Assembly (NCBI RefSeq): GCF_013122565.1
Contig: NZ_CP053258.1
Length of the DNA: 64,000 bases
Reading direction: 5' to 3' (one strand)
Source: Escherichia coli
GTDB taxonomy: Bacteria; Pseudomonadota; Gammaproteobacteria; Enterobacterales; Enterobacteriaceae
Each line of letters starts with the position of its first letter. Positions within the stretch are counted from its first letter, which is position 1. A model generated the notes under the pieces. That model was not told the DNA's origin and ran no database searches. It worked only from the letters and a program-made list of their open reading frames with translations. The position numbers and the translations under genes were made by a program. Shown one piece after another: positions 947-10,604 of the stretch.

Positions 947-2638
947 ATGAAAACGCTGCTGATTATTGACGCTAATCTCGGTCAGGCACGCGCCTATATG
1001 GCGAAGACCCTGCTGGGCGCGGCGGCGCGAAAAGCAAAACTGGAAATCATCGACAATCCGAACGACGCTGAAATGGCGATTGTTCTCGGTGATTCCATCC
1101 CGAACGACAGCGCGCTGAACGGTAAAAATGTCTGGCTGGGCGATATTTCCCGGGCAGTTGCGCACCCTGAGCTGTTCCTGAGCGAAGCCAAAGGCCATGC
1201 GAAACCTTACACTGCGCCGGTCGCTGCGACAGCACCGGTTGCCGCCAGCGGTCCGAAACGCGTAGTTGCGGTGACTGCTTGCCCGACTGGCGTAGCACAC
1301 ACCTTTATGGCGGCTGAAGCCATTGAAACCGAAGCGAAAAAACGTGGCTGGTGGGTGAAAGTTGAAACCCGTGGTTCTGTTGGCGCGGGTAATGCAATCA
1401 CTCCAGAAGAAGTAGCCGCAGCGGATCTGGTGATTGTGGCGGCAGATATCGAAGTGGATCTGGCGAAATTTGCTGGTAAACCGATGTATCGTACCTCTAC
1501 CGGTCTGGCGCTGAAGAAAACCGCGCAGGAACTGGATAAAGCGGTTGCTGAAGCAACGCCGTATGAACCGGCGGGCAAAGCTCAAACGGCGACCTCTGAA
1601 GGTAAGAAAGAGAGTGCAGGCGCATACCGTCACTTGCTGACGGGCGTCTCTTACATGCTGCCGATGGTCGTTGCAGGTGGTCTGTGTATCGCGCTTTCTT
1701 TTGCTTTTGGTATCGAAGCGTTTAAAGAGCCGGGTACGTTGGCAGCGGCGCTGATGCAGATTGGTGGTGGTTCAGCCTTTGCGCTGATGGTGCCGGTACT
1801 GGCAGGTTACATTGCCTTCTCCATTGCCGATCGTCCGGGTCTCACGCCGGGTCTGATTGGCGGTATGCTGGCGGTCAGCACCGGTTCTGGCTTCATTGGC
1901 GGTATTATTGCGGGCTTCCTGGCTGGTTACATTGCGAAGTTAATCAGTACGCAACTGAAACTGCCACAGAGTATGGAGGCGCTGAAACCGATCCTGATCA
2001 TTCCGCTAATTTCCAGTCTGGTGGTCGGTCTGGCGATGATCTACCTGATCGGTAAACCGGTTGCTGGCATTCTCGAAGGGTTGACTCACTGGCTGCAGAC
2101 CATGGGGACTGCGAATGCGGTTCTGCTGGGGGCGATCCTCGGTGGCATGATGTGTACTGACATGGGCGGTCCGGTAAATAAAGCAGCGTACGCATTCGGT
2201 GTGGGTCTGCTGAGTACTCAAACCTATGGCCCGATGGCGGCGATTATGGCGGCAGGTATGGTGCCACCGCTGGCAATGGGTCTGGCAACAATGGTGGCGC
2301 GTCGCAAATTTGACAAAGCGCAGCAGGAAGGTGGCAAAGCCGCTCTGGTTCTTGGTCTGTGCTTTATTTCGGAAGGTGCAATTCCGTTTGCTGCTCGTGA
2401 TCCGATGCGTGTGCTGCCGTGCTGTATCGTGGGTGGGGCGCTGACTGGCGCAATCTCAATGGCGATTGGTGCGAAACTGATGGCACCGCACGGTGGTCTG
2501 TTTGTTCTACTGATCCCTGGCGCTATTACGCCTGTATTGGGTTACCTGGTAGCAATTATTGCCGGTACGCTGGTGGCGGGTTTGGCCTATGCCTTCCTGA
2601 AACGTCCGGAAGTGGACGCAGTAGCGAAAGCAGCGTAA
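947..2638 (+). CDS. fruA: PTS fructose-specific EIIB'BC component
   Basis: 563-aa ORF, ATG at 947 preceded by caggagagg RBS; translation matches FruA (two B domains plus membrane C domain). Confidence 0.95.
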   Translation: MKTLLIIDANLGQARAYMAKTLLGAAARKAKLEIIDNPNDAEMAIVLGDSIPNDSALNGKNVWLGDISRAVAHPELFLSEAKGHAKPYTAPVAATAPVAASGPKRVVAVTACPTGVAHTFMAAEAIETEAKKRGWWVKVETRGSVGAGNAITPEEVAAADLVIVAADIEVDLAKFAGKPMYRTSTGLALKKTAQELDKAVAEATPYEPAGKAQTATSEGKKESAGAYRHLLTGVSYMLPMVVAGGLCIALSFAFGIEAFKEPGTLAAALMQIGGGSAFALMVPVLAGYIAFSIADRPGLTPGLIGGMLAVSTGSGFIGGIIAGFLAGYIAKLISTQLKLPQSMEALKPILIIPLISSLVVGLAMIYLIGKPVAGILEGLTHWLQTMGTANAVLLGAILGGMMCTDMGGPVNKAAYAFGVGLLSTQTYGPMAAIMAAGMVPPLAMGLATMVARRKFDKAQQEGGKAALVLGLCFISEGAIPFAARDPMRVLPCCIVGGALTGAISMAIGAKLMAPHGGLFVLLIPGAITPVLGYLVAIIAGTLVAGLAYAFLKRPEVDAVAKAA

Positions 2639-2795
2639 TAAAAGGTGTGTTACAGGGCAGAAATTTCCTGCCCTGTATCATTGGATGAGCGCAAAGGGAA
2701 TGACCGGCTTATGAATGTAATTTTATGAATTTAAATGGTTTTATCTTTCAGTAGAAACCTGAAACGTTCATCAAACACTAAGGTTATTTCCTCAA

Positions 2796-2824
2796 GGGCA
2801 GATTATTTTCTGCCCTTTTTTATT
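2796..2824 (+). terminator. Intrinsic terminator downstream of fruBKA
   Basis: Stem gggcaga / tctgccc (2796-2802 / 2809-2815) with 6-nt loop, followed by T-run ttttttatt. Confidence 0.6.
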
Positions 2825-3061
2825 GTTCCTGTTCTGTGCATCCCGTCACAAATTCCTCGCTTTTGTAATTCAGGCATTTAATCGCATTTTGTGAGCCTGC
2901 TCAAATCTGCCCATTTTGCCTCTCTGGCGGTAATTTACTTTACGTAAAACATGCATACTATGAGCACATGTTTAAATATGAACACATGTTTAAACCGTCT
3001 TTGCAGTATCTATATTCTTGTGGATTGACAGGGTTGGTAATTTTTTACCAGAGGACGTGCT

Positions 3062-4003
3062 ATGCGCGAAAAGGATTATGTCGTAATTATAGGTTCGGCG
3101 AATATTGATGTCGCCGGATATTCACATGAATCATTAAATTATGCGGATTCAAATCCAGGTAAAATAAAATTTACGCCTGGTGGAGTCGGGCGCAATATTG
3201 CACAAAACCTGGCGTTGCTGGGGAATAAAGCCTGGCTACTTAGCGCAGTAGGCAGTGATTTTTATGGTCAATCGTTGCTAACGCAAACCAATCAATCTGG
3301 TGTTTATGTCGATAAATGCCTGATTGTGCCGGGAGAAAATACGTCGAGCTATTTATCATTACTCGATAATACCGGTGAAATGCTGGTTGCTATAAATGAC
3401 ATGAATATTAGCAACGCTATTACAGCTGAATATCTCGCACAGCACCGTGAATTTATTCAGAGGGCAAAGGTCATTGTCGCGGACTGTAATATCAGTGAAG
3501 AGGCACTGGCATGGATTCTGGATAATGCCGCCAACGTACCCGTATTTGTCGATCCTGTTTCCGCGTGGAAATGTGTCAAAGTGCGCGACCGTCTAAATCA
3601 GATCCACACTCTCAAACCAAACCGCCTTGAAGCGGAAACCCTGAGTGGGATTGCGCTGTCAGGGCGTGCAGATGTGGCAAAAGTTGCTGCCTGGTTCCAT
3701 CAACATGGCCTGAACCGACTGGTATTGAGCATGGGCGGCGACGGCGTTTATTACAGCGATATCAGCGGTGAAAGTGGCTGGTCTGCGCCGATCAAAACCA
3801 ATGTCATTAATGTTACCGGAGCGGGCGATGCCATGATGGCGGGGCTTGCTTCGTGTTGGGTAGACGGAATGCCGTTTGCCGAATCTGTTCGTTTCGCACA
3901 GGGATGTTCGTCAATGGCGCTCTCCTGTGAATACACCAATAACCCCGATTTATCGATTGCCAACGTTATATCGTTAGTGGAGAACGCAGAATGTCTGAAT
4001 TAA
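3062..4003 (+). CDS. psuK: Pseudouridine kinase (PfkB family)
   Basis: 313-aa ORF MREKDYVVIIGSANIDV...; matches E. coli YeiC/PsuK; 13-nt overlap with psuG start. Confidence 0.92.
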   Translation: MREKDYVVIIGSANIDVAGYSHESLNYADSNPGKIKFTPGGVGRNIAQNLALLGNKAWLLSAVGSDFYGQSLLTQTNQSGVYVDKCLIVPGENTSSYLSLLDNTGEMLVAINDMNISNAITAEYLAQHREFIQRAKVIVADCNISEEALAWILDNAANVPVFVDPVSAWKCVKVRDRLNQIHTLKPNRLEAETLSGIALSGRADVAKVAAWFHQHGLNRLVLSMGGDGVYYSDISGESGWSAPIKTNVINVTGAGDAMMAGLASCWVDGMPFAESVRFAQGCSSMALSCEYTNNPDLSIANVISLVENAECLN

Positions 4004-4929
4004 AAATTTCCCCTGAATTATTACAAATTTCCCCGGAAGTGCAGGACGCTTTAAAAAACAAAAAACCGGTTGTGGCGCTGGAATCGACCATTATTTCTCA
4101 CGGGATGCCGTTCCCACAAAATGCCCAGACCGCAATTGAAGTTGAAGAAACTATTCGTAAACAGGGCGCAGTACCTGCCACTATCGCCATTATTGGTGGC
4201 GTGATGAAAGTGGGTTTAAGCAAAGAAGAAATTGAATTACTGGGTCGTGAAGGGCATAACGTGACTAAAGTTAGTCGTCGCGATTTACCTTTTGTCGTTG
4301 CCGCCGGAAAAAATGGCGCAACCACCGTGGCTTCAACGATGATTATTGCGGCGCTTGCCGGAATTAAAGTATTTGCCACCGGCGGAATTGGTGGTGTTCA
4401 TCGCGGGGCGGAACATACCTTCGATATTTCTGCCGATTTGCAAGAACTGGCAAATACTAATGTCACCGTTGTTTGTGCCGGGGCGAAATCTATTCTCGAT
4501 TTAGGCTTAACTACCGAATATTTAGAAACTTTCGGTGTACCGCTAATTGGCTATCAGACCAAAGCGTTGCCTGCGTTTTTCTGCCGCACCAGCCCGTTTG
4601 ACGTCAGCATTCGTCTCGACAGCGCCAGTGAAATTGCCCGTGCAATGGCGGTGAAATGGCAAAGCGGGCTGAACGGTGGCCTCGTGGTAGCGAACCCGAT
4701 CCCGGAACAGTTTGCGATGCCGGAACAGACCATTAACGCTGCGATTGATCAGGCAGTGGCAGAAGCCGAAGAACAGGGAGTCATTGGTAAAGAAAGTACG
4801 CCATTCCTGCTGGCGCGCGTTGCTGAGCTGACCGGCGGTGACAGCCTGAAATCCAACATCCAGCTGGTGTTCAACAACGCCATTCTGGCGAGCGAAATTG
4901 CCAAAGAATATCAGCGTCTCGCGGGTTAA
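3991..4929 (+). CDS. psuG: Pseudouridine-5'-phosphate glycosidase
   Basis: 312-aa ORF MSELKISPELLQISPEVQDALKNKKPVVALESTIISHGMPFP...; matches YeiN/PsuG. Confidence 0.92.
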   Translation: MSELKISPELLQISPEVQDALKNKKPVVALESTIISHGMPFPQNAQTAIEVEETIRKQGAVPATIAIIGGVMKVGLSKEEIELLGREGHNVTKVSRRDLPFVVAAGKNGATTVASTMIIAALAGIKVFATGGIGGVHRGAEHTFDISADLQELANTNVTVVCAGAKSILDLGLTTEYLETFGVPLIGYQTKALPAFFCRTSPFDVSIRLDSASEIARAMAVKWQSGLNGGLVVANPIPEQFAMPEQTINAAIDQAVAEAEEQGVIGKESTPFLLARVAELTGGDSLKSNIQLVFNNAILASEIAKEYQRLAG

Positions 4930-5022
4930 TTTCTGACGGGCAGAAAGCCGTCGCCCGTACTCATCAAGCATACCAAAACCTGGCGCTGACGCCGGGTTTA
5001 CTGGCATGAAGGGAAAATCATT

Positions 5023-6273
5023 ATGGATATAATGAGAAGTGTTGTGGGGATGGTGGTGTTACTGGCAATAGCATTTCTGTTGTCAGTGAATAAAAAGAGC
5101 ATCAGTTTGCGCACGGTTGGAGCCGCACTGCTGCTGCAAATCGCTATTGGTGGCATCATGCTCTACTTCCCACCGGGAAAATGGGCAGTAGAACAGGCGG
5201 CATTAGGCGTTCATAAAGTGATGTCTTACAGTGATGCCGGTAGCGCCTTTATTTTTGGTTCGCTGGTTGGGCCGAAAATGGATGTCCTGTTTGACGGTGC
5301 GGGTTTTATCTTCGCCTTTCGCGTACTTCCGGCGATTATCTTCGTCACTGCGCTCATTAGTCTGCTGTACTACATTGGCGTGATGGGGCTGCTGATTCGC
5401 ATCCTTGGCAGCATTTTCCAGAAAGCCCTCAACATCAGCAAAATCGAATCTTTTGTCGCAGTCACCACTATTTTCCTCGGGCAAAATGAGATCCCGGCGA
5501 TCGTTAAACCGTTTATCGATCGCATGAATCGCAACGAGTTGTTTACCGCAATTTGTAGCGGGATGGCGTCCATTGCTGGTTCGATGATGATTGGTTATGC
5601 CGGAATGGGCGTACCAATTGACTACCTGTTAGCGGCATCGCTGATGGCGATCCCCGGCGGTATTTTGTTTGCACGTATTCTTAGCCCGGCAACCGAGCCT
5701 TCGCAGGTCACATTTGAAAATCTGTCGTTCAGCGAAACGCCGCCAAAAAGCTTTATCGAAGCGGCGGCGAGCGGTGCGATGACCGGGCTGAAAATCGCCG
5801 CTGGTGTGGCGACGGTGGTCATGGCGTTTGTCGCAATTATTGCGCTGATCAACGGCATTATCGGCGGAATTGGCGGCTGGTTTGGTTTTGCCAATGCCTC
5901 TCTGGAAAGTATTTTTGGCTATGTGCTGGCACCGCTGGCGTGGATCATGGGTGTGGACTGGAGTGATGCCAATCTTGCGGGTAGCCTGATTGGGCAGAAA
6001 CTGGCGATTAACGAATTCGTCGCTTACCTGAGTTTCTCCCCATACCTGCAAACGGGCGGCACGCTGGAAGTGAAAACCATTGCGATTATCTCCTTTGCGC
6101 TTTGTGGTTTTGCTAACTTTGGTTCTATCGGTGTTGTCGTTGGCGCATTTTCGGCTATTTCGCCAAAACGTGCTCCGGAAATCGCTCAGCTTGGTTTACG
6201 GGCGCTGGCAGCAGCAACGCTTTCCAACCTGATGAGCGCGACTATTGCCGGGTTCTTTATTGGTTTAGCTTGA
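5023..6273 (+). CDS. psuT: NupC-family nucleoside transporter (putative pseudouridine transporter)
   Basis: 416-aa polytopic membrane ORF; matches YeiM/PsuT; close paralogue of nupX at 8210. Confidence 0.9.
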   Translation: MDIMRSVVGMVVLLAIAFLLSVNKKSISLRTVGAALLLQIAIGGIMLYFPPGKWAVEQAALGVHKVMSYSDAGSAFIFGSLVGPKMDVLFDGAGFIFAFRVLPAIIFVTALISLLYYIGVMGLLIRILGSIFQKALNISKIESFVAVTTIFLGQNEIPAIVKPFIDRMNRNELFTAICSGMASIAGSMMIGYAGMGVPIDYLLAASLMAIPGGILFARILSPATEPSQVTFENLSFSETPPKSFIEAAASGAMTGLKIAAGVATVVMAFVAIIALINGIIGGIGGWFGFANASLESIFGYVLAPLAWIMGVDWSDANLAGSLIGQKLAINEFVAYLSFSPYLQTGGTLEVKTIAIISFALCGFANFGSIGVVVGAFSAISPKRAPEIAQLGLRALAAATLSNLMSATIAGFFIGLA

Positions 6274-6279
6274 GTTTTA

Positions 6280-6319
6280 TTGCCGGATGTACTCGCTTAT
6301 TAAGCGTTGCATCCGGCAA
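6280..6319. repeat. REP-like palindrome between convergent psuT and yeiL
   Basis: ttgccggatg ... gcatccggcaa inverted repeat immediately after psuT stop. Confidence 0.55.
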
Positions 6320-6340
6320 TCGCACTATTGCAAATAATAT

Positions 6341-7000
6341 TTACTGCATCATCCCGGAGAATTTATTCTCCGGGTCCATCTCCAGCGCCAGTCCTGACAA
6401 CTGCTTTCTGTTTTTAATTAGATATCCTTTCTTGCTTTTAATTAATAAACCGTCGTGAATGAATTGTGCGAGAACATATAAAAGATGTCGATAAGAAACG
6501 CCTAAATACTCTGCCGCTTGCGTATGCTTTTCGTGATAAAGATCACCTTCTTGTGAGAGTAATATAAATGCTGCCAGGCGATTCACTAACGGAAATGATT
6601 GATTCTGAGTTAAAGAAACAATATTACGATAATTTTTATGACTTAAGGTGACGCAAAGTTTTCGTAAAAATAGGGTGTCGTTTAATAACAGCGGACGGTA
6701 ATGTTTCATAGGGAGCGCAAGGCACCAACACTCTTCAATAGCCTGTACCGCACGCGGTTCATGGTCTTTATCGATTAACTCAATCTCACCAATAAAACAG
6801 GGGGCGGCAAAGAAATCGATCAGCGACACGCGACCATTAGCTAGCGTGGCGTAAAGCCTGGCGCGGCCTCGCGTCAGGTAAAACAGCCAGGACGGCTGTT
6901 GCCCTTCCTGCACAATGTAGTCACGCGCTAAAAAATGAAACAGCCGCGTATCGGCTGAAACATCCGTTAAAAAGCAATCCTTAAACGCGGATTCACTCAT
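6341..7000 (-). CDS. yeiL: CRP/FNR-family transcriptional regulator YeiL
   Basis: ORF-track 6341..7039 begins at a GTG; internal ATG at 7000 gives the 219-aa protein [14 protein letters not shown]... matching YeiL. Confidence 0.88.
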
Positions 7001-7168
7001 CAATTGCTGCTTAAGATCATTATTGTGGATTTCTTTCACGATGTTTATCCGCTATGAGATTTCTCATATTTAGCATACGTACGCTGTTGTTAAGATTCAA
7101 TCATCGGCCCGATCGAAATTTCTTTGCTGTAGAAAAAATAACGCAACTGGAAACAGAGGAAATAAACA

Positions 7169-8110
7169 ATGGAAAAGAGAAAAATTATTCTGGATTGTGA
7201 TCCGGGTCATGATGATGCTATTGCTATAATGATGGCGGCGAAACATCCGGCAATAGATTTATTAGGCATCACTATTGTAGCGGGTAATCAGACGCTTGAT
7301 AAAACATTAATTAATGGCCTGAATGTTTGCCAGAAACTGGAGATTAATGTTCCGGTTTATGCGGGGATGCCACAACCCATTATGCGGCAACAAATCGTTG
7401 CCGATAATATTCACGGTGATACCGGACTGGATGGCCCGGTATTCGAGCCGCTGACCCGCCAGGCAGAAAGCACTCATGCGGTGAAATACATCATTGATAC
7501 CCTGATGGCAAGCGATGGCGATATCACTCTGGTGCCGGTTGGTCCGCTTTCAAATATCGCGGTGGCAATGCGTATGCAACCCGCGATCCTGCCCAAAATC
7601 CGTGAAATTGTGCTAATGGGCGGCGCTTACGGTACAGGCAACTTCACGCCATCTGCCGAGTTCAACATCTTTGCTGACCCGGAAGCCGCACGCGTGGTGT
7701 TCACCTCCGGCGTTCCATTAGTGATGATGGGCCTCGATCTTACCAACCAGACCGTTTGCACCCCGGACGTGATTGCACGAATGGAAAGGGCAGGCGGCCC
7801 TGCCGGAGAGCTGTTCAGCGACATCATGAACTTCACTCTCAAAACCCAGTTCGAAAACTACGGCCTGGCTGGCGGCCCGGTGCACGACGCCACCTGCATC
7901 GGTTATCTGATTAACCCTGATGGCATTAAAACCCAGGAGATGTACGTCGAAGTGGACGTCAACAGTGGCCCTTGCTATGGGCGTACCGTCTGCGACGAGC
8001 TGGGCGTTCTTGGCAAGCCCGCTAATACCAAAGTCGGCATCACTATTGATACCGACTGGTTCTGGGGCTTAGTCGAAGAGTGCGTGCGCGGCTACATCAA
8101 AACCCATTAA
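7169..8110 (+). CDS. rihB: Pyrimidine-specific ribonucleoside hydrolase
   Basis: 313-aa ORF with N-terminal DCDPGHDD nucleoside-hydrolase motif; matches RihB/YeiK. Confidence 0.93.
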
Positions 8111-8209
8111 GTGTTGATAACAAGCCGGGTCAGTATCGCAAGATGCAGGCCCGGCTATTTCTGAGGGGCAGAAAGCCGTCGCCCAATATGACATGAAGAG
8201 ATAATCACT

Positions 8210-9460
8210 ATGGATGTCATGAGAAGTGTTCTGGGAATGGTGGTATTGCTGACGATTGCGTTTTTACTGTCAGTAAACAAGAAGAAGATCAGCCTGCGTA
8301 CCGTTGGCGCGGCGTTAGTGTTACAGGTCGTGATTGGCGGCATTATGCTTTGGTTACCGCCAGGGCGTTGGGTCGCTGAAAAAGTCGCTTTTGGCGTGCA
8401 TAAAGTGATGGCGTACAGCGACGCGGGTAGCGCATTTATCTTCGGTTCTCTGGTCGGACCGAAAATGGACACCTTATTTGATGGCGCAGGATTTATCTTT
8501 GGTTTCAGGGTGTTACCGGCAATTATCTTCGTCACCGCGCTGGTGAGTATTCTCTACTACATCGGTGTGATGGGGATCTTAATTCGCATTCTCGGCGGTA
8601 TCTTCCAGAAAGCATTAAATATCAGCAAGATCGAGTCATTCGTCGCGGTCACTACCATTTTCCTCGGGCAAAACGAAATTCCGGCGATCGTCAAACCCTT
8701 TATCGATCGTCTGAATCGCAATGAATTATTTACAGCGATTTGTAGTGGCATGGCCTCGATTGCTGGTTCGACAATGATTGGTTACGCCGCGCTGGGCGTG
8801 CCTGTGGAATATCTGCTGGCGGCATCATTAATGGCGATCCCTGGCGGGATCTTGTTTGCCCGCCTGTTAAGCCCGGCAACGGAATCTTCGCAGGTTTCCT
8901 TTAATAACCTCTCTTTCACCGAAACACCGCCAAAAAGCATTATTGAAGCCGCTGCGACAGGGGCAATGACCGGGCTGAAAATCGCCGCAGGTGTGGCGAC
9001 AGTAGTGATGGCATTTGTCGCCATCATTGCGTTAATTAACGGTATTATCGGCGGCGTTGGCGGCTGGTTTGATTTTGAACATGCCTCGCTGGAATCCATT
9101 TTAGGTTACCTGCTGGCCCTACTGGCGTGGGTGATGGGTGTTGACTGGAGTGATGCGAATCTTGCCGGGAGTTTGATTGGTCAGAAACTGGCAATAAATG
9201 AATTTGTCGCTTATCTCAATTTCTCACCCTATCTGCAAACAGCTGGCACTCTCGATGTTAAAACTGTGGCGATTATTTCCTTCGCGTTGTGCGGTTTCGC
9301 TAACTTTGGTTCTATCGGGGTAGTGGTGGGGGCGTTTTCTGCGGTTGCGCCACACCGCGCGCCGGAAATCGCCCAGCTTGGTTTACGTGCGCTGGCGGCG
9401 GCGACACTTTCTAACCTGATGAGCGCTACCATTGCCGGATTCTTTATTGGTTTAGCGTAG
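8210..9460 (+). CDS. nupX: NupC-family nucleoside permease
   Basis: 416-aa ORF, highly similar along its length to psuT; matches NupX/YeiJ. Confidence 0.9.
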   Translation: MDVMRSVLGMVVLLTIAFLLSVNKKKISLRTVGAALVLQVVIGGIMLWLPPGRWVAEKVAFGVHKVMAYSDAGSAFIFGSLVGPKMDTLFDGAGFIFGFRVLPAIIFVTALVSILYYIGVMGILIRILGGIFQKALNISKIESFVAVTTIFLGQNEIPAIVKPFIDRLNRNELFTAICSGMASIAGSTMIGYAALGVPVEYLLAASLMAIPGGILFARLLSPATESSQVSFNNLSFTETPPKSIIEAAATGAMTGLKIAAGVATVVMAFVAIIALINGIIGGVGGWFDFEHASLESILGYLLALLAWVMGVDWSDANLAGSLIGQKLAINEFVAYLNFSPYLQTAGTLDVKTVAIISFALCGFANFGSIGVVVGAFSAVAPHRAPEIAQLGLRALAAATLSNLMSATIAGFFIGLA

Positions 9461-9474
9461 CGCGCAATTTATGA

Positions 9475-9508
9475 GCCGGATAAGATGCGGTCAAGCGTCG
9501 AATCCGGC
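9475..9508. repeat. REP-like palindrome between convergent nupX and yeiI
   Basis: gccggataagatgcgg ... gaatccggc inverted repeat. Confidence 0.5.
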
Positions 9509-9515
9509 AACATTG

Positions 9516-10604
9516 TTACACCATTGGCACTAATGAAAGCGCGTTATCGGCAGACAGGGTAGGGTTGTTTAAGCTGCCGCTGGCGCGTGAAATTGCCGCG
9601 CAGGCCATCGCAAAACGGGCGCTGTCACGGAAATTGTTTCCCTCCAGAAAGCTATATACCAGGCCCGCCATAAAACCATCGTCAGCACCAAAACTGTCTA
9701 CTGTCGTATGCGCTGGTGCGGTCAGCAAAAATTGTTCTCCATCCTTTTCGCTGCAATAAACTGACTCATCGGGCAAATAAACAAACAGTTGCTGAACACC
9801 TTGCTGATGCAACGCATTCACTGCGGCATTACGGTCAACATCGCTGGTGATCGCCTGTCCCCATAAAATTTCCAGCTCCGGTAAAGTGGGTTTCAGGGTA
9901 TGAATATGCGCCAGCCAGTGTTTGATTTTGCCCGCTTTGAATTCTGAAACGGTATCGACAAACACCGGGATCTCATCAGCGAGGGTAAAGACCCATTCCA
10001 GCGCCTCGGCTGTCAGGTTGCAATCAGCCAGTACCACGCCCGCATGACGAAGTAAATCGCGCGACCCGTTCAGTAGTTGCGGTGTCAACTGTTCCAGCAG
10101 ATGGGTATCGTTAATCGCCAGCACGGTTTGATCGTCTCGATTGGCAATTGCCAGATACGTCGATGTGCTTTGACCATGCAAACGAACGCAGCCGGAGACA
10201 TTCACGCCGGCACGGCGCGTTTCTTCCAGGAGCATTTCGCCATAAAAGTCATCGCCAATCACTGAAAGCAAATGGACGTCGCGGCCTAACAGCGCCAGAT
10301 TGTGGGCGATATTGCGTCCAACGCCGCCCGCCGAGCAATGAATTGTACCGGGATGAGAAGCCGCTTGCGGGTAACGGATATCCGCCATCCCGCGAATATC
10401 CATATTGATTGTCCCCACCACTACGCAGTATTCCTGCTCGGTGAGAATGTAACCTTTGCCTTTAATCCGGCCTTTGCGCATTAAATCCATAATATGCGCC
10501 GCAACGCGCGAACGACTGATTTGCAGCATGTCCGCAATTTCGTTCTGCTGAATCAGCGGGTTACGCCGTAAAATTGCAAGGATCTCCTTTTCCCGGTTAT
10601 TCAT
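9516..10604 (-). CDS. yeiI: HTH-fused PfkB-family carbohydrate/nucleoside kinase (uncharacterised)
   Basis: 362-aa ORF: N-terminal winged-HTH-like segment (MNNREKEILAILRRNPLIQQNEIADMLQISRSRV) fused to a PfkB kinase domain paralogous to psuK; matches YeiI. Confidence 0.88.
   Translation of the reverse strand: MNNREKEILAILRRNPLIQQNEIADMLQISRSRVAAHIMDLMRKGRIKGKGYILTEQEYCVVVGTINMDIRGMADIRYPQAASHPGTIHCSAGGVGRNIAHNLALLGRDVHLLSVIGDDFYGEMLLEETRRAGVNVSGCVRLHGQSTSTYLAIANRDDQTVLAINDTHLLEQLTPQLLNGSRDLLRHAGVVLADCNLTAEALEWVFTLADEIPVFVDTVSEFKAGKIKHWLAHIHTLKPTLPELEILWGQAITSDVDRNAAVNALHQQGVQQLFVYLPDESVYCSEKDGEQFLLTAPAHTTVDSFGADDGFMAGLVYSFLEGNNFRDSARFAMACAAISRASGSLNNPTLSADNALSLVPMV

Follow-up and report, generated by a model that had tools for sequence, protein, structure and literature searches.

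A conserved leader hairpin before the paralogous transporter genes psuT and nupX of Escherichia coli and its relatives, probably a functional mRNA element

The window analysed here is a stretch of 64,000 nucleotides (nt) from the Escherichia coli contig NZ_CP053258.1, and our subject is a short sequence that stands in it twice, once before psuT and once before nupX, two transporter genes of the nucleoside-salvage modules found within the gene order fruA, psuK, psuG, psuT, yeiL, rihB, nupX, yeiI, nfo. The sequence contains a 19-nt core that is predicted to fold into a small hairpin, hereafter P1, which is probably a functional mRNA element of modest, local importance. The DNA comes from a strain other than K-12, and a nupX leader at least 99% identical to that of the window occurs in only 81 of 5414 E. 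coli records. The genes and the two copies of the sequence lie as follows.

3062-4003, plus strand: psuK, in the gene string psuK-psuG-psuT
3991-4929, plus strand: psuG, pseudouridine-5'-phosphate glycosidase, the 5' neighbour of the psuT leader, with stop codon TAA at 4927-4929
4929-4956, plus strand: repeat copy 1, in the psuT leader, beginning at the final base of the psuG stop codon
5023-6273, plus strand: psuT, a transporter of the NupC/CNT family, with ATG at 5023-5025
6280-6319: palindrome resembling repetitive extragenic palindromic (REP) sequences, after psuT
6341-7039, minus strand: yeiL (CRP/FNR family), convergent with psuT
7169-8110, plus strand: rihB, pyrimidine ribonucleoside hydrolase, the 5' neighbour of the nupX leader, with its stop codon at 8108-8110
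8157-8184, plus strand: repeat copy 2, in the nupX leader
8210-9460, plus strand: nupX, the psuT paralogue (88% amino-acid identity), with ATG at 8210-8212
9475-9509: REP-like palindrome after nupX
9516-10604, minus strand: yeiI, convergent with nupX

A direct-repeat search returned the two copies as a 28-nt repeat, identical at 27 of its 28 positions (96%), that reads ATTTCTGA[C/G]GGGCAGAAAGCCGTCGCCC. An initial annotation, made from the sequence alone, had reported a shared sequence before both transporters that includes an identical non-coding block of 19 nt. Both statements hold: the longest exact run is the 19-nt GGGCAGAAAGCCGTCGCCC, and the repeat pattern occurs at exactly two places in the 64 kilobases (kb), where none are expected (100 shuffles). 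The extra G that the annotation gave to one copy was a miscount, the copies differing by a single C/G substitution with no insertion or deletion and remaining in register. Its placement of the motif directly after the upstream stop codon is correct for the psuT copy, while the nupX copy starts 47 nt past the rihB stop, behind a separate hairpin (8123-8156). The proposed distance of 65-90 nt to the start codon is likewise wrong, as the start of the motif lies 92 nt from the ATG of psuT (5023) and 52 nt from that of nupX (8210). The repeat sequence was found in 5424 of 5426 complete E. coli genomes, at a median of 2 and a maximum of 3 places per genome.

The same annotation described psuT and nupX as close paralogues, each followed by a REP palindrome and a convergent gene, and this is borne out by the protein identity of 88% and by the features listed above; the palindrome at 9475-9509 has a weak match in Rfam to naRNA4, a REP-derived family (E = 5.4). 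At the level of DNA the two genes are 78.5% identical, falling to 51% at third codon positions and 44% at four-fold sites, so that their silent sites are saturated. A neighbour-joining tree groups the NupX proteins into a single clade next to the PsuT proteins of Enterobacteriaceae, which points to one old duplication. At the neutral rate of the four-fold sites, 27 or more matches in 28 positions would arise with a probability of about 4e-9. Given the saturation of silent sites in the adjoining genes, the repeat does not look like a passive relic of that duplication.

Alignment across the Enterobacteriaceae, which had been suggested as a check, reveals a core conserved in at least nine genera. 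The psuT and nupX loci of other genera were taken from one genome scan, which supplied about 10 close relatives, and ten protein look-ups. The 19-nt core, GGGC-[A/C]-G-NNN-G-[C/G]-N-GT-N-GCC[C/T], stands a single time in each of 19 psuT and nupX leaders, 25-68 nt ahead of the ATG, and two further nupX leaders of Enterobacter type (loci L086 and L090) carry a variant of it. It is kept before psuT or nupX orthologues in Escherichia, Citrobacter, Enterobacter, Leclercia, Klebsiella, Kluyvera, Buttiauxella, Superficieibacter and Entomohabitans, with a mean pairwise identity of 85.5% (0.855), compared with 46% (0.462) at four-fold sites of the adjoining genes (36 pairs). The 5' third of the motif, TTCTGA, is specific to Escherichia and is not conserved in the other genera, and the conserved unit would accordingly be the 19-nt core, GGGC-A-G-NNN-GC-N-GU-C-GCCC, with one or two flanking pairs, TTCTGA lying outside the element. 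P1 has also been retained although nupX lineages lost different downstream stretches of the leader, through several independent deletions that include a 41-nt gap in the window. Judged by these comparisons, the core is probably under purifying selection in both the psuT and the nupX lineages.

The range of the element is narrow. The core is absent from the Hafnia/Serratia-type loci (L007-L009), and the matches in 2 of 67 other NupC-family loci lie outside any leader and were judged to be chance. A search of the window and 73 NupC-family loci (3 of Hafnia/Serratia type and 70 more distant) with covariance model R1 returned no further significant copy. The psuG-psuT spacers of Hafnia/Serratia type contain a different, longer hairpin with the tip GGGC, 7-8 nt, GYYY, and this tip may be a distant relative of P1 that the covariance model did not detect.

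The hairpin itself is laid out in the two leaders as follows.

4936-4958, plus strand: P1 of the psuT leader, with stem ACGGGC (4936-4941) / GCCCGT (4953-4958), bulged A at 4942, pair G4943-C4952, loop 4944-4951 and core 4938-4956
8166-8184, plus strand: P1 core of the nupX leader, with a GGGC/GCCC stem and one G-C pair, -7.3 kcal/mol, covariance-model score 35.1 bits

In general form, P1 has a stem NN-GGGC/GCCC-N'N', then a bulge (A or C) and a further G-C pair that closes a loop of 8 nt, NNNGCNGU. The psuT copy has a minimum free energy (MFE) of -11.1 kcal/mol and a covariance-model score of 39.2 bits. In the nupX copy of the window the flanking pair is broken (G8165 opposite A8185), where K-12 and other strains have a T and hence a U-A pair. 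P1 lies in the same orientation as the genes at all loci. In an ungapped alignment of 21 related sequences, 83.6% of cells are paired and six of the nine pairs have changed on both sides (pair types include, at columns 7-25, G-C/A-U; 6-26, C-G/U-A/U-G; 5-27, A-U/G-C/G-U; 12-21, G-C/A-U/G-U), the outer G-C pair having become A-U in the psuT clade of Leclercia and Enterobacter. The covariation score is 0.277; shuffles give 0.175, with 0 of 500 as high, and slid-partner controls 0.04-0.20, a result that reflects a handful of independent events among related sequences and a shuffle control that ignores phylogeny. RNAalifold, applied to ten full-length leaders, found P1 independently, together with a second hairpin (P2, below) and a small AU hairpin over the start codon. 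P1 thus has the generic traits of a structured cis-acting mRNA leader: it occupies a non-coding leader position on the sense strand, and its pairing is kept by compensatory and wobble changes. That it is a functional RNA hairpin of some kind we consider fairly likely.

Read as duplex DNA, the same sequence is an imperfect inverted repeat, (N)GGGC-N11-GCCC(N), and its symmetric ends and conserved internal bases would suit an operator at which a factor acts as a roadblock or regulates an internal transporter promoter; genes for possible regulators are linked to it, namely yeiL, of the CRP/FNR family, and yeiI, which encodes a helix-turn-helix (HTH) domain. However, the symmetric positions covary and tolerate G.U, with six G.U wobble cells against one A.C, which would be irrelevant or harmful for a duplex site. 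A 5'-flank polymorphism in E. coli, AC to GT, turns two Watson-Crick pairs into two G.U pairs, and in the Enterobacter nupX variant the spacer has become self-complementary by way of G.U pairs: most of the loop is rewritten, and the result is a hairpin of 12 base pairs (bp), two of them G.U, with -19.5 kcal/mol and a z-score of about -4. The covariation, the wobble bias, the E. coli polymorphism and the Enterobacter variant together speak for an RNA hairpin read in the direction of the genes rather than for a duplex-DNA site, and hence for the RNA structure that was among the options of the initial annotation.

Its suggestion of a CytR, CRP or NagC-type operator found no match above shuffled background. 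Consensus strings for CRP, FNR, CytR, PurR, DeoR and NagC match the leaders no better than shuffled leaders (fraction reaching the observed match 0.14-1.0), and the best match to a sigma-54 string is 7 of 11, equal to the shuffle mean. No sigma-70-like sites, and hence no candidate promoter, were found in 4700-5100 and 7950-8300, only 25 nt separate P1 from the ATG in the nupX leader of the window, and no second copy lies by the psuK, rihB or yeiL promoters or elsewhere in the 64 kb. An operator is, in our estimation, improbable.

Other identities for P1 were considered. A comparison of 2500-10000 with Rfam 15 (cmscan, E up to 10) gave no family match, the only overlap being isrJ at 18.9 bits against a threshold of 37 (E = 7.1). 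P1 is not an intrinsic terminator: no T run follows it (GTACTCAT or AATATGAC), and terminator scans call none on the plus strand in either leader. With a median of two places per E. coli genome, no REP consensus and no other copy in the 64 kb, it is not a dispersed repeat such as a REP or a bacterial interspersed mosaic element. A small open reading frame (ORF) or leader peptide was rejected, as the variable positions form a contiguous NNN block and covarying pairs, which is not codon-like; the places where minus-strand ORFs (4543..5007 and 8155..8535) overlap P1 are not equivalent, and a short ATG-AAG-GG ORF by the psuT ribosome-binding site is absent from the Leclercia and Klebsiella leaders. 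Two competing structures were set aside as well: the 5' arm of the palindrome TTTCTG-N5-CAGAAA of E. coli is not conserved beyond Escherichia, and the alternative hairpin GACGG/CCGTC of the E. coli psuT MFE fold is specific to E. coli and broken in nupX and other genera. A metagenome scan with GGGCAGTNNGCNGTCGCCC gave at least 120 matches; those listed are chance occurrences in unrelated, mostly GC-rich (60-75%) contigs, and among them none stands beside a psuG, rihB or nupX homologue. A plasmid search returned only a captured psuK-psuG-psuT-yeiL segment on IncHI1 plasmids and some whole chromosomes filed as plasmids. The plasmids in question are large, conjugative, of IncHI1 type and from E. 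coli (pLAO65, NZ_OP242285.1, locus L091, and five similar plasmids), and in them an ISVsa5 transposase gene adjoins the chromosomal segment.

The near-identity of the two E. coli copies calls for a separate explanation, for of the 13 positions that are variable between genera, nine in the 5' flank and four in the loop, they match at 12 (P about 4e-4). In its loop (AAA..C) the E. coli nupX leader follows the Escherichia psuT type and differs from other nupX leaders (T.A..G), and in Enterobacter genomes with both leaders the cores share only 10 of 19 positions. Agreement at freely varying positions suggests that a local, Escherichia-specific homogenisation has been added to selection, and a short exchange between the leaders, resembling gene conversion, best explains the extra identity. 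Nowhere in the coding sequences was a segment found that brings one E. coli paralogue nearer to the other than to its own orthologues. The argument of the initial annotation, that a block kept identical between paralogues must be functional, is therefore confounded, exact identity being partly homogenisation; what stands of its preference for a functional element over a relic comes from conservation of the core and covariation of the stem, while the TTCTGA part is not conserved.

The same homogenisation signature could be taken to mean that P1 is a functionless leftover of the psuT duplication, kept alike by gene conversion, mutational cold spots or chance; its thermodynamic weakness in several species and its intact state in E. 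coli strains from which nupX has been deleted agree with this, although those deletions are probably too recent for decay of P1 to show. Such deletions were seen in about 9 of 30 evenly sampled E. coli records, where nupX is reduced to its leader and 66 nt of its 5' end, annotated as an incomplete hypothetical protein, with yeiI directly behind (loci L213, L214 and L215, about 3521-3586), and P1 in these strains has one loop change (AGAGAG). Conversion between paralogues cannot, however, explain conservation where there is a single copy, as in E. albertii, Citrobacter, K. michiganensis, Leclercia and Buttiauxella, nor can it account for the identity of 85.5% against 46%, the compensatory changes and the survival of P1 beside repeated deletions. 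We give this possibility only a slim chance.

Several other parts of the leaders bear on how P1 might work.

4957-4978, plus strand: linker between P1 and P2, GTACTCATCAAGCATACCAAAA, C-rich and G-poor
4975-4999, plus strand: P2, AAAA-CCTGGCG-CTGA-CGCCGGG-TTT (stem-loop 4979-4996), GC-rich with a short T run
5009-5014, plus strand: Shine-Dalgarno-like AAGGGA of psuT, with the start codon at 5023-5025, kept in alignment A2
8123-8162, plus strand: hairpin X after rihB, AGCCGGG...CCCGGCT (8123-8156) then ATTTCT, terminator-like, immediately 5' of P1
8195-8201, plus strand: Shine-Dalgarno-like GAAGAGA of nupX, with the start codon at 8210-8212

Every psuT leader has P2, as does the nupX leader of K. 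spallanzanii; the other nupX leaders, that of the window included, have lost it, several independent deletions having removed P2 and the linker. Its 3' half and the TTT run are invariant, and it looks like a weak terminator or attenuator; with a U-tract of 3-4 nt, its T run is too short for it to be called in the terminator scan. Hairpin X received no call in the strict scan either. Most nupX leaders possess a hairpin between the rihB stop codon and P1, and these are non-homologous between genera. Conservation of the linker (ATCAxxCATACCxAAA) is partial and extends over the psuT leaders and several of those of nupX. Over the psuT start, the consensus of ten leaders forms an AU-rich hairpin, CAUUAU-GGAU-AUAAUG (5018-5033; columns 96-111 of alignment A2), which could equally reflect the conserved N-terminal codons Met-Asp-Ile-Met. 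Behind P1, the nupX leader is 12 nt shorter in the window (8185-8209) and K-12 than in strain SCPM-O-B-8794 (locus L001, 2964-3000), the sequences being AATATGACATG and ATAACGGGATCAGACCTGACATG respectively; nupX leader length is thus polymorphic within E. coli, with P1 unchanged. In E. coli ETEC4071 (locus L216, 2835-3293), IS200C lies between rihB and nupX; its end falls in the T-rich run behind the rihB hairpin, a few bases short of P1.

The order of parts in psuT leaders (P1, a 22-nt linker, P2 and UUU) is that of a sensor followed by a terminator, and it raises the alternative that P1 is a recognition hairpin for a trans-acting factor (an RNA-binding protein or small RNA, less likely a small ligand) that controls translation of, or read-through into, the transporter gene. 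Control of this kind would be conditional, for example on pseudouridine or pyrimidine nucleosides, with P2 as an attenuator-like partner in psuT. The unpaired bases agree with such a role, being near-invariant in both paralogue lineages: loop and bulge bases hardly vary in 19 of 21 sequences, and in alignment A1 the unpaired G19 and T20 never change, conservation at G12 and G16 reaches at least 90%, and the bulge is either A or C. The flexible spacing of P1 (9-55 nt from the stop codon and 25-68 nt to the ATG) is as expected of an autonomous binding module, and the loop identity specific to E. coli could reflect co-selection by one factor. Yet the Enterobacter nupX variant has replaced most of the loop and bulge within its near-perfect 12-bp hairpin, which is hard to square with one conserved surface, and P1 is too small for known stand-alone aptamers and, as noted, lacks an Rfam match. 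As a riboswitch it would offer only one hairpin of 6-8 bp common to both lineages, with P2 a possible expression platform in psuT leaders alone. Most nupX leaders lack P2 and have a terminator-like hairpin upstream of P1 instead, so antitermination cannot be the common mechanism; a RAT-type (ribonucleic antiterminator) arrangement was rejected for psuT also, P1 (4936-4958) and P2 (4979-4996) lying about 20 nt apart and being predicted to form together.

A linked candidate for the factor is YeiI, a PsuK paralogue (about 40% identity) in which an N-terminal winged-helix domain, HTH_24, is fused to a PfkB kinase. Its gene adjoins psuT or nupX in most loci, and the psuK-psuG-psuT operons of Hafnia and Serratia have, at the psuK position, a gene with the same HTH extension (locus L007, 815-1930), making this pathway-linked fusion a candidate regulator. 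Against this, the Buttiauxella and K. spallanzanii loci have P1 with no adjacent yeiI, and HTH_24 is a domain of DNA-binding type. All told, we regard a recognition hairpin as rather unlikely, and more doubtful still is the specific case in which P1 (with P2 in psuT) is the RNA target of a dedicated regulator of pseudouridine and pyrimidine-nucleoside uptake, YeiI or another, or a very small ligand-responsive RNA. If that were true, pseudouridine salvage would gain its first described riboregulatory element, and with a dedicated regulator the E. coli-specific loop identity would reflect co-evolution with that factor.

The reading we favour is that P1 acts in cis as an mRNA boundary affecting the processing, stability or output of the transporter message, a proposal that we hold tentatively, at somewhat short of even chances. 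P1 would have been present in the psuT leader before its duplication to nupX, early in the Enterobacteriaceae, and kept in both lineages by purifying selection. As a stable structure between enzyme and transporter genes it would separate the fates of two mRNA segments: it could block 3'-to-5' exonucleases and shield the upstream segment, or, following endonucleolytic cleavage, could serve as a protective 5' stem-loop for the transporter segment, and by either route transporter output would be set separately from that of the enzymes. P1 would do so beside the weak terminator-like P2 in psuT leaders and behind the upstream terminator-like hairpin in nupX leaders. The Enterobacter nupX variant, which rewrites the loop while strengthening the stem, fits a role in which the hairpin itself matters and is best accommodated by the cis-acting boundary.

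Several observations weigh against this proposal. Besides the few independent covariation events mentioned above, the hairpin is short, P1 of most species is little more stable than shuffled sequence (z-scores of 0 to -2.4), and the E. albertii sequence prefers another fold. A 3'-protective role would be redundant in nupX leaders because a separate hairpin already stands upstream, and no conserved cleavage motif was found 5' of P1. Near-invariance of G10, G13 and U14 of the loop, and of the bulge, is not needed by a barrier hairpin and fits a specific recognition site better. Finally, neither a transcription start site (TSS) nor a 3' end is listed in either intergenic region in the supplement of PMC7815308, and the psuT and nupX genes are poorly expressed in the laboratory. 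The TSSs listed nearby, none of them in the leaders, include three at K-12 positions 2255991 (minus), 2259533 (minus) and 2253044 (plus); by kind these are one antisense to yeiL just downstream of psuT, which would read towards rihB-nupX, an orphan that precedes psuK by about 300 nt, and another antisense start that lies within nupX.

The genomic setting of the leaders differs among genera. A layout of psuK-psuG-psuT followed by convergent yeiI and nfo is common to E. albertii, Citrobacter, Enterobacter asburiae, Enterobacter sp. FS01, K. michiganensis and Leclercia, while a yeiL-rihB-nupX module, placed at several different points, is found in E. coli, Superficieibacter, Kluyvera, Entomohabitans, Buttiauxella, K. 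spallanzanii and Enterobacter hormaechei. Comparing loci L081, L084, L086, L087 and L090 with the window, we find the module between fruA and nfo in Buttiauxella (with no psuKGT or yeiI within the fetched locus), upstream of psuK in Enterobacter hormaechei and at an unrelated locus in K. spallanzanii, which suggests that it moves as a unit. With regard to function, NupX has been found to transport uridine and cytidine at low efficiency, and no transport of uridine, cytidine or xanthosine was detected for PsuT (PMC11241209). The literature found on psuT, nupX, yeiM, yeiJ, psuK and psuG consists of papers on transport and enzymology, with nothing on these leaders.

A hairpin before both transporters offers a mutable handle on how transporter levels are adjusted to those of catabolic enzymes in E. 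coli and its relatives, and opens the question of post-transcriptional control in pseudouridine and nucleoside salvage. The locus also provides a small, clean example of purifying selection across genera combined with local homogenisation in one species, acting on one non-coding element after an old duplication. Wider significance is limited because the element is short and confined to one clade and two genes, unless a ligand or binding partner is found.

Intercistronic stem-loops that stabilise mRNA are known from the REP hairpins between malE and malF of E. coli and from the puf operon of Rhodobacter. P1 resembles these in being a GC-rich intercistronic stem-loop with no U-tract, for which differential segment stability may by analogy be proposed, but differs in having two copies per genome and no REP consensus, in being much shorter, and in its conserved loop and bulge bases. 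Hairpin 1 of the ompA 5' untranslated region protects its message against 5'-end-dependent attack by RNase E. No transcript 5' end is listed just upstream of P1 in the supplement of PMC7815308. Like ompA hairpin 1, P1 is small, lies upstream of the ribosome-binding site of a membrane-protein gene and stands at a flexible distance from the ATG. Protein-binding leader hairpins that govern read-through include the RAT element of BglG and SacY and boxB of lambda N. These, too, are short with conserved unpaired bases, and a terminator-like hairpin follows P1 in psuT leaders; unlike them, P1 does not overlap P2 (the linker being 22 nt), most nupX leaders lack a downstream terminator, and there is no sequence resemblance. 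In the intercistronic attenuator of rph-pyrE, the stop codon of the upstream gene lies close to the terminator. The psuT leader is comparable with respect to the context of P2 only, in that the psuG stop codon is 9-13 nt from P1 and the terminator-like P2 precedes a pyrimidine-related gene, whereas P1 of nupX leaders is 18-55 nt from the rihB stop codon with its terminator-like hairpin upstream, and the U-tract of P2 is only 3-4 nt. Set beside these systems, P1 is, as far as sequence comparison can tell, an undescribed, clade-restricted leader stem-loop.

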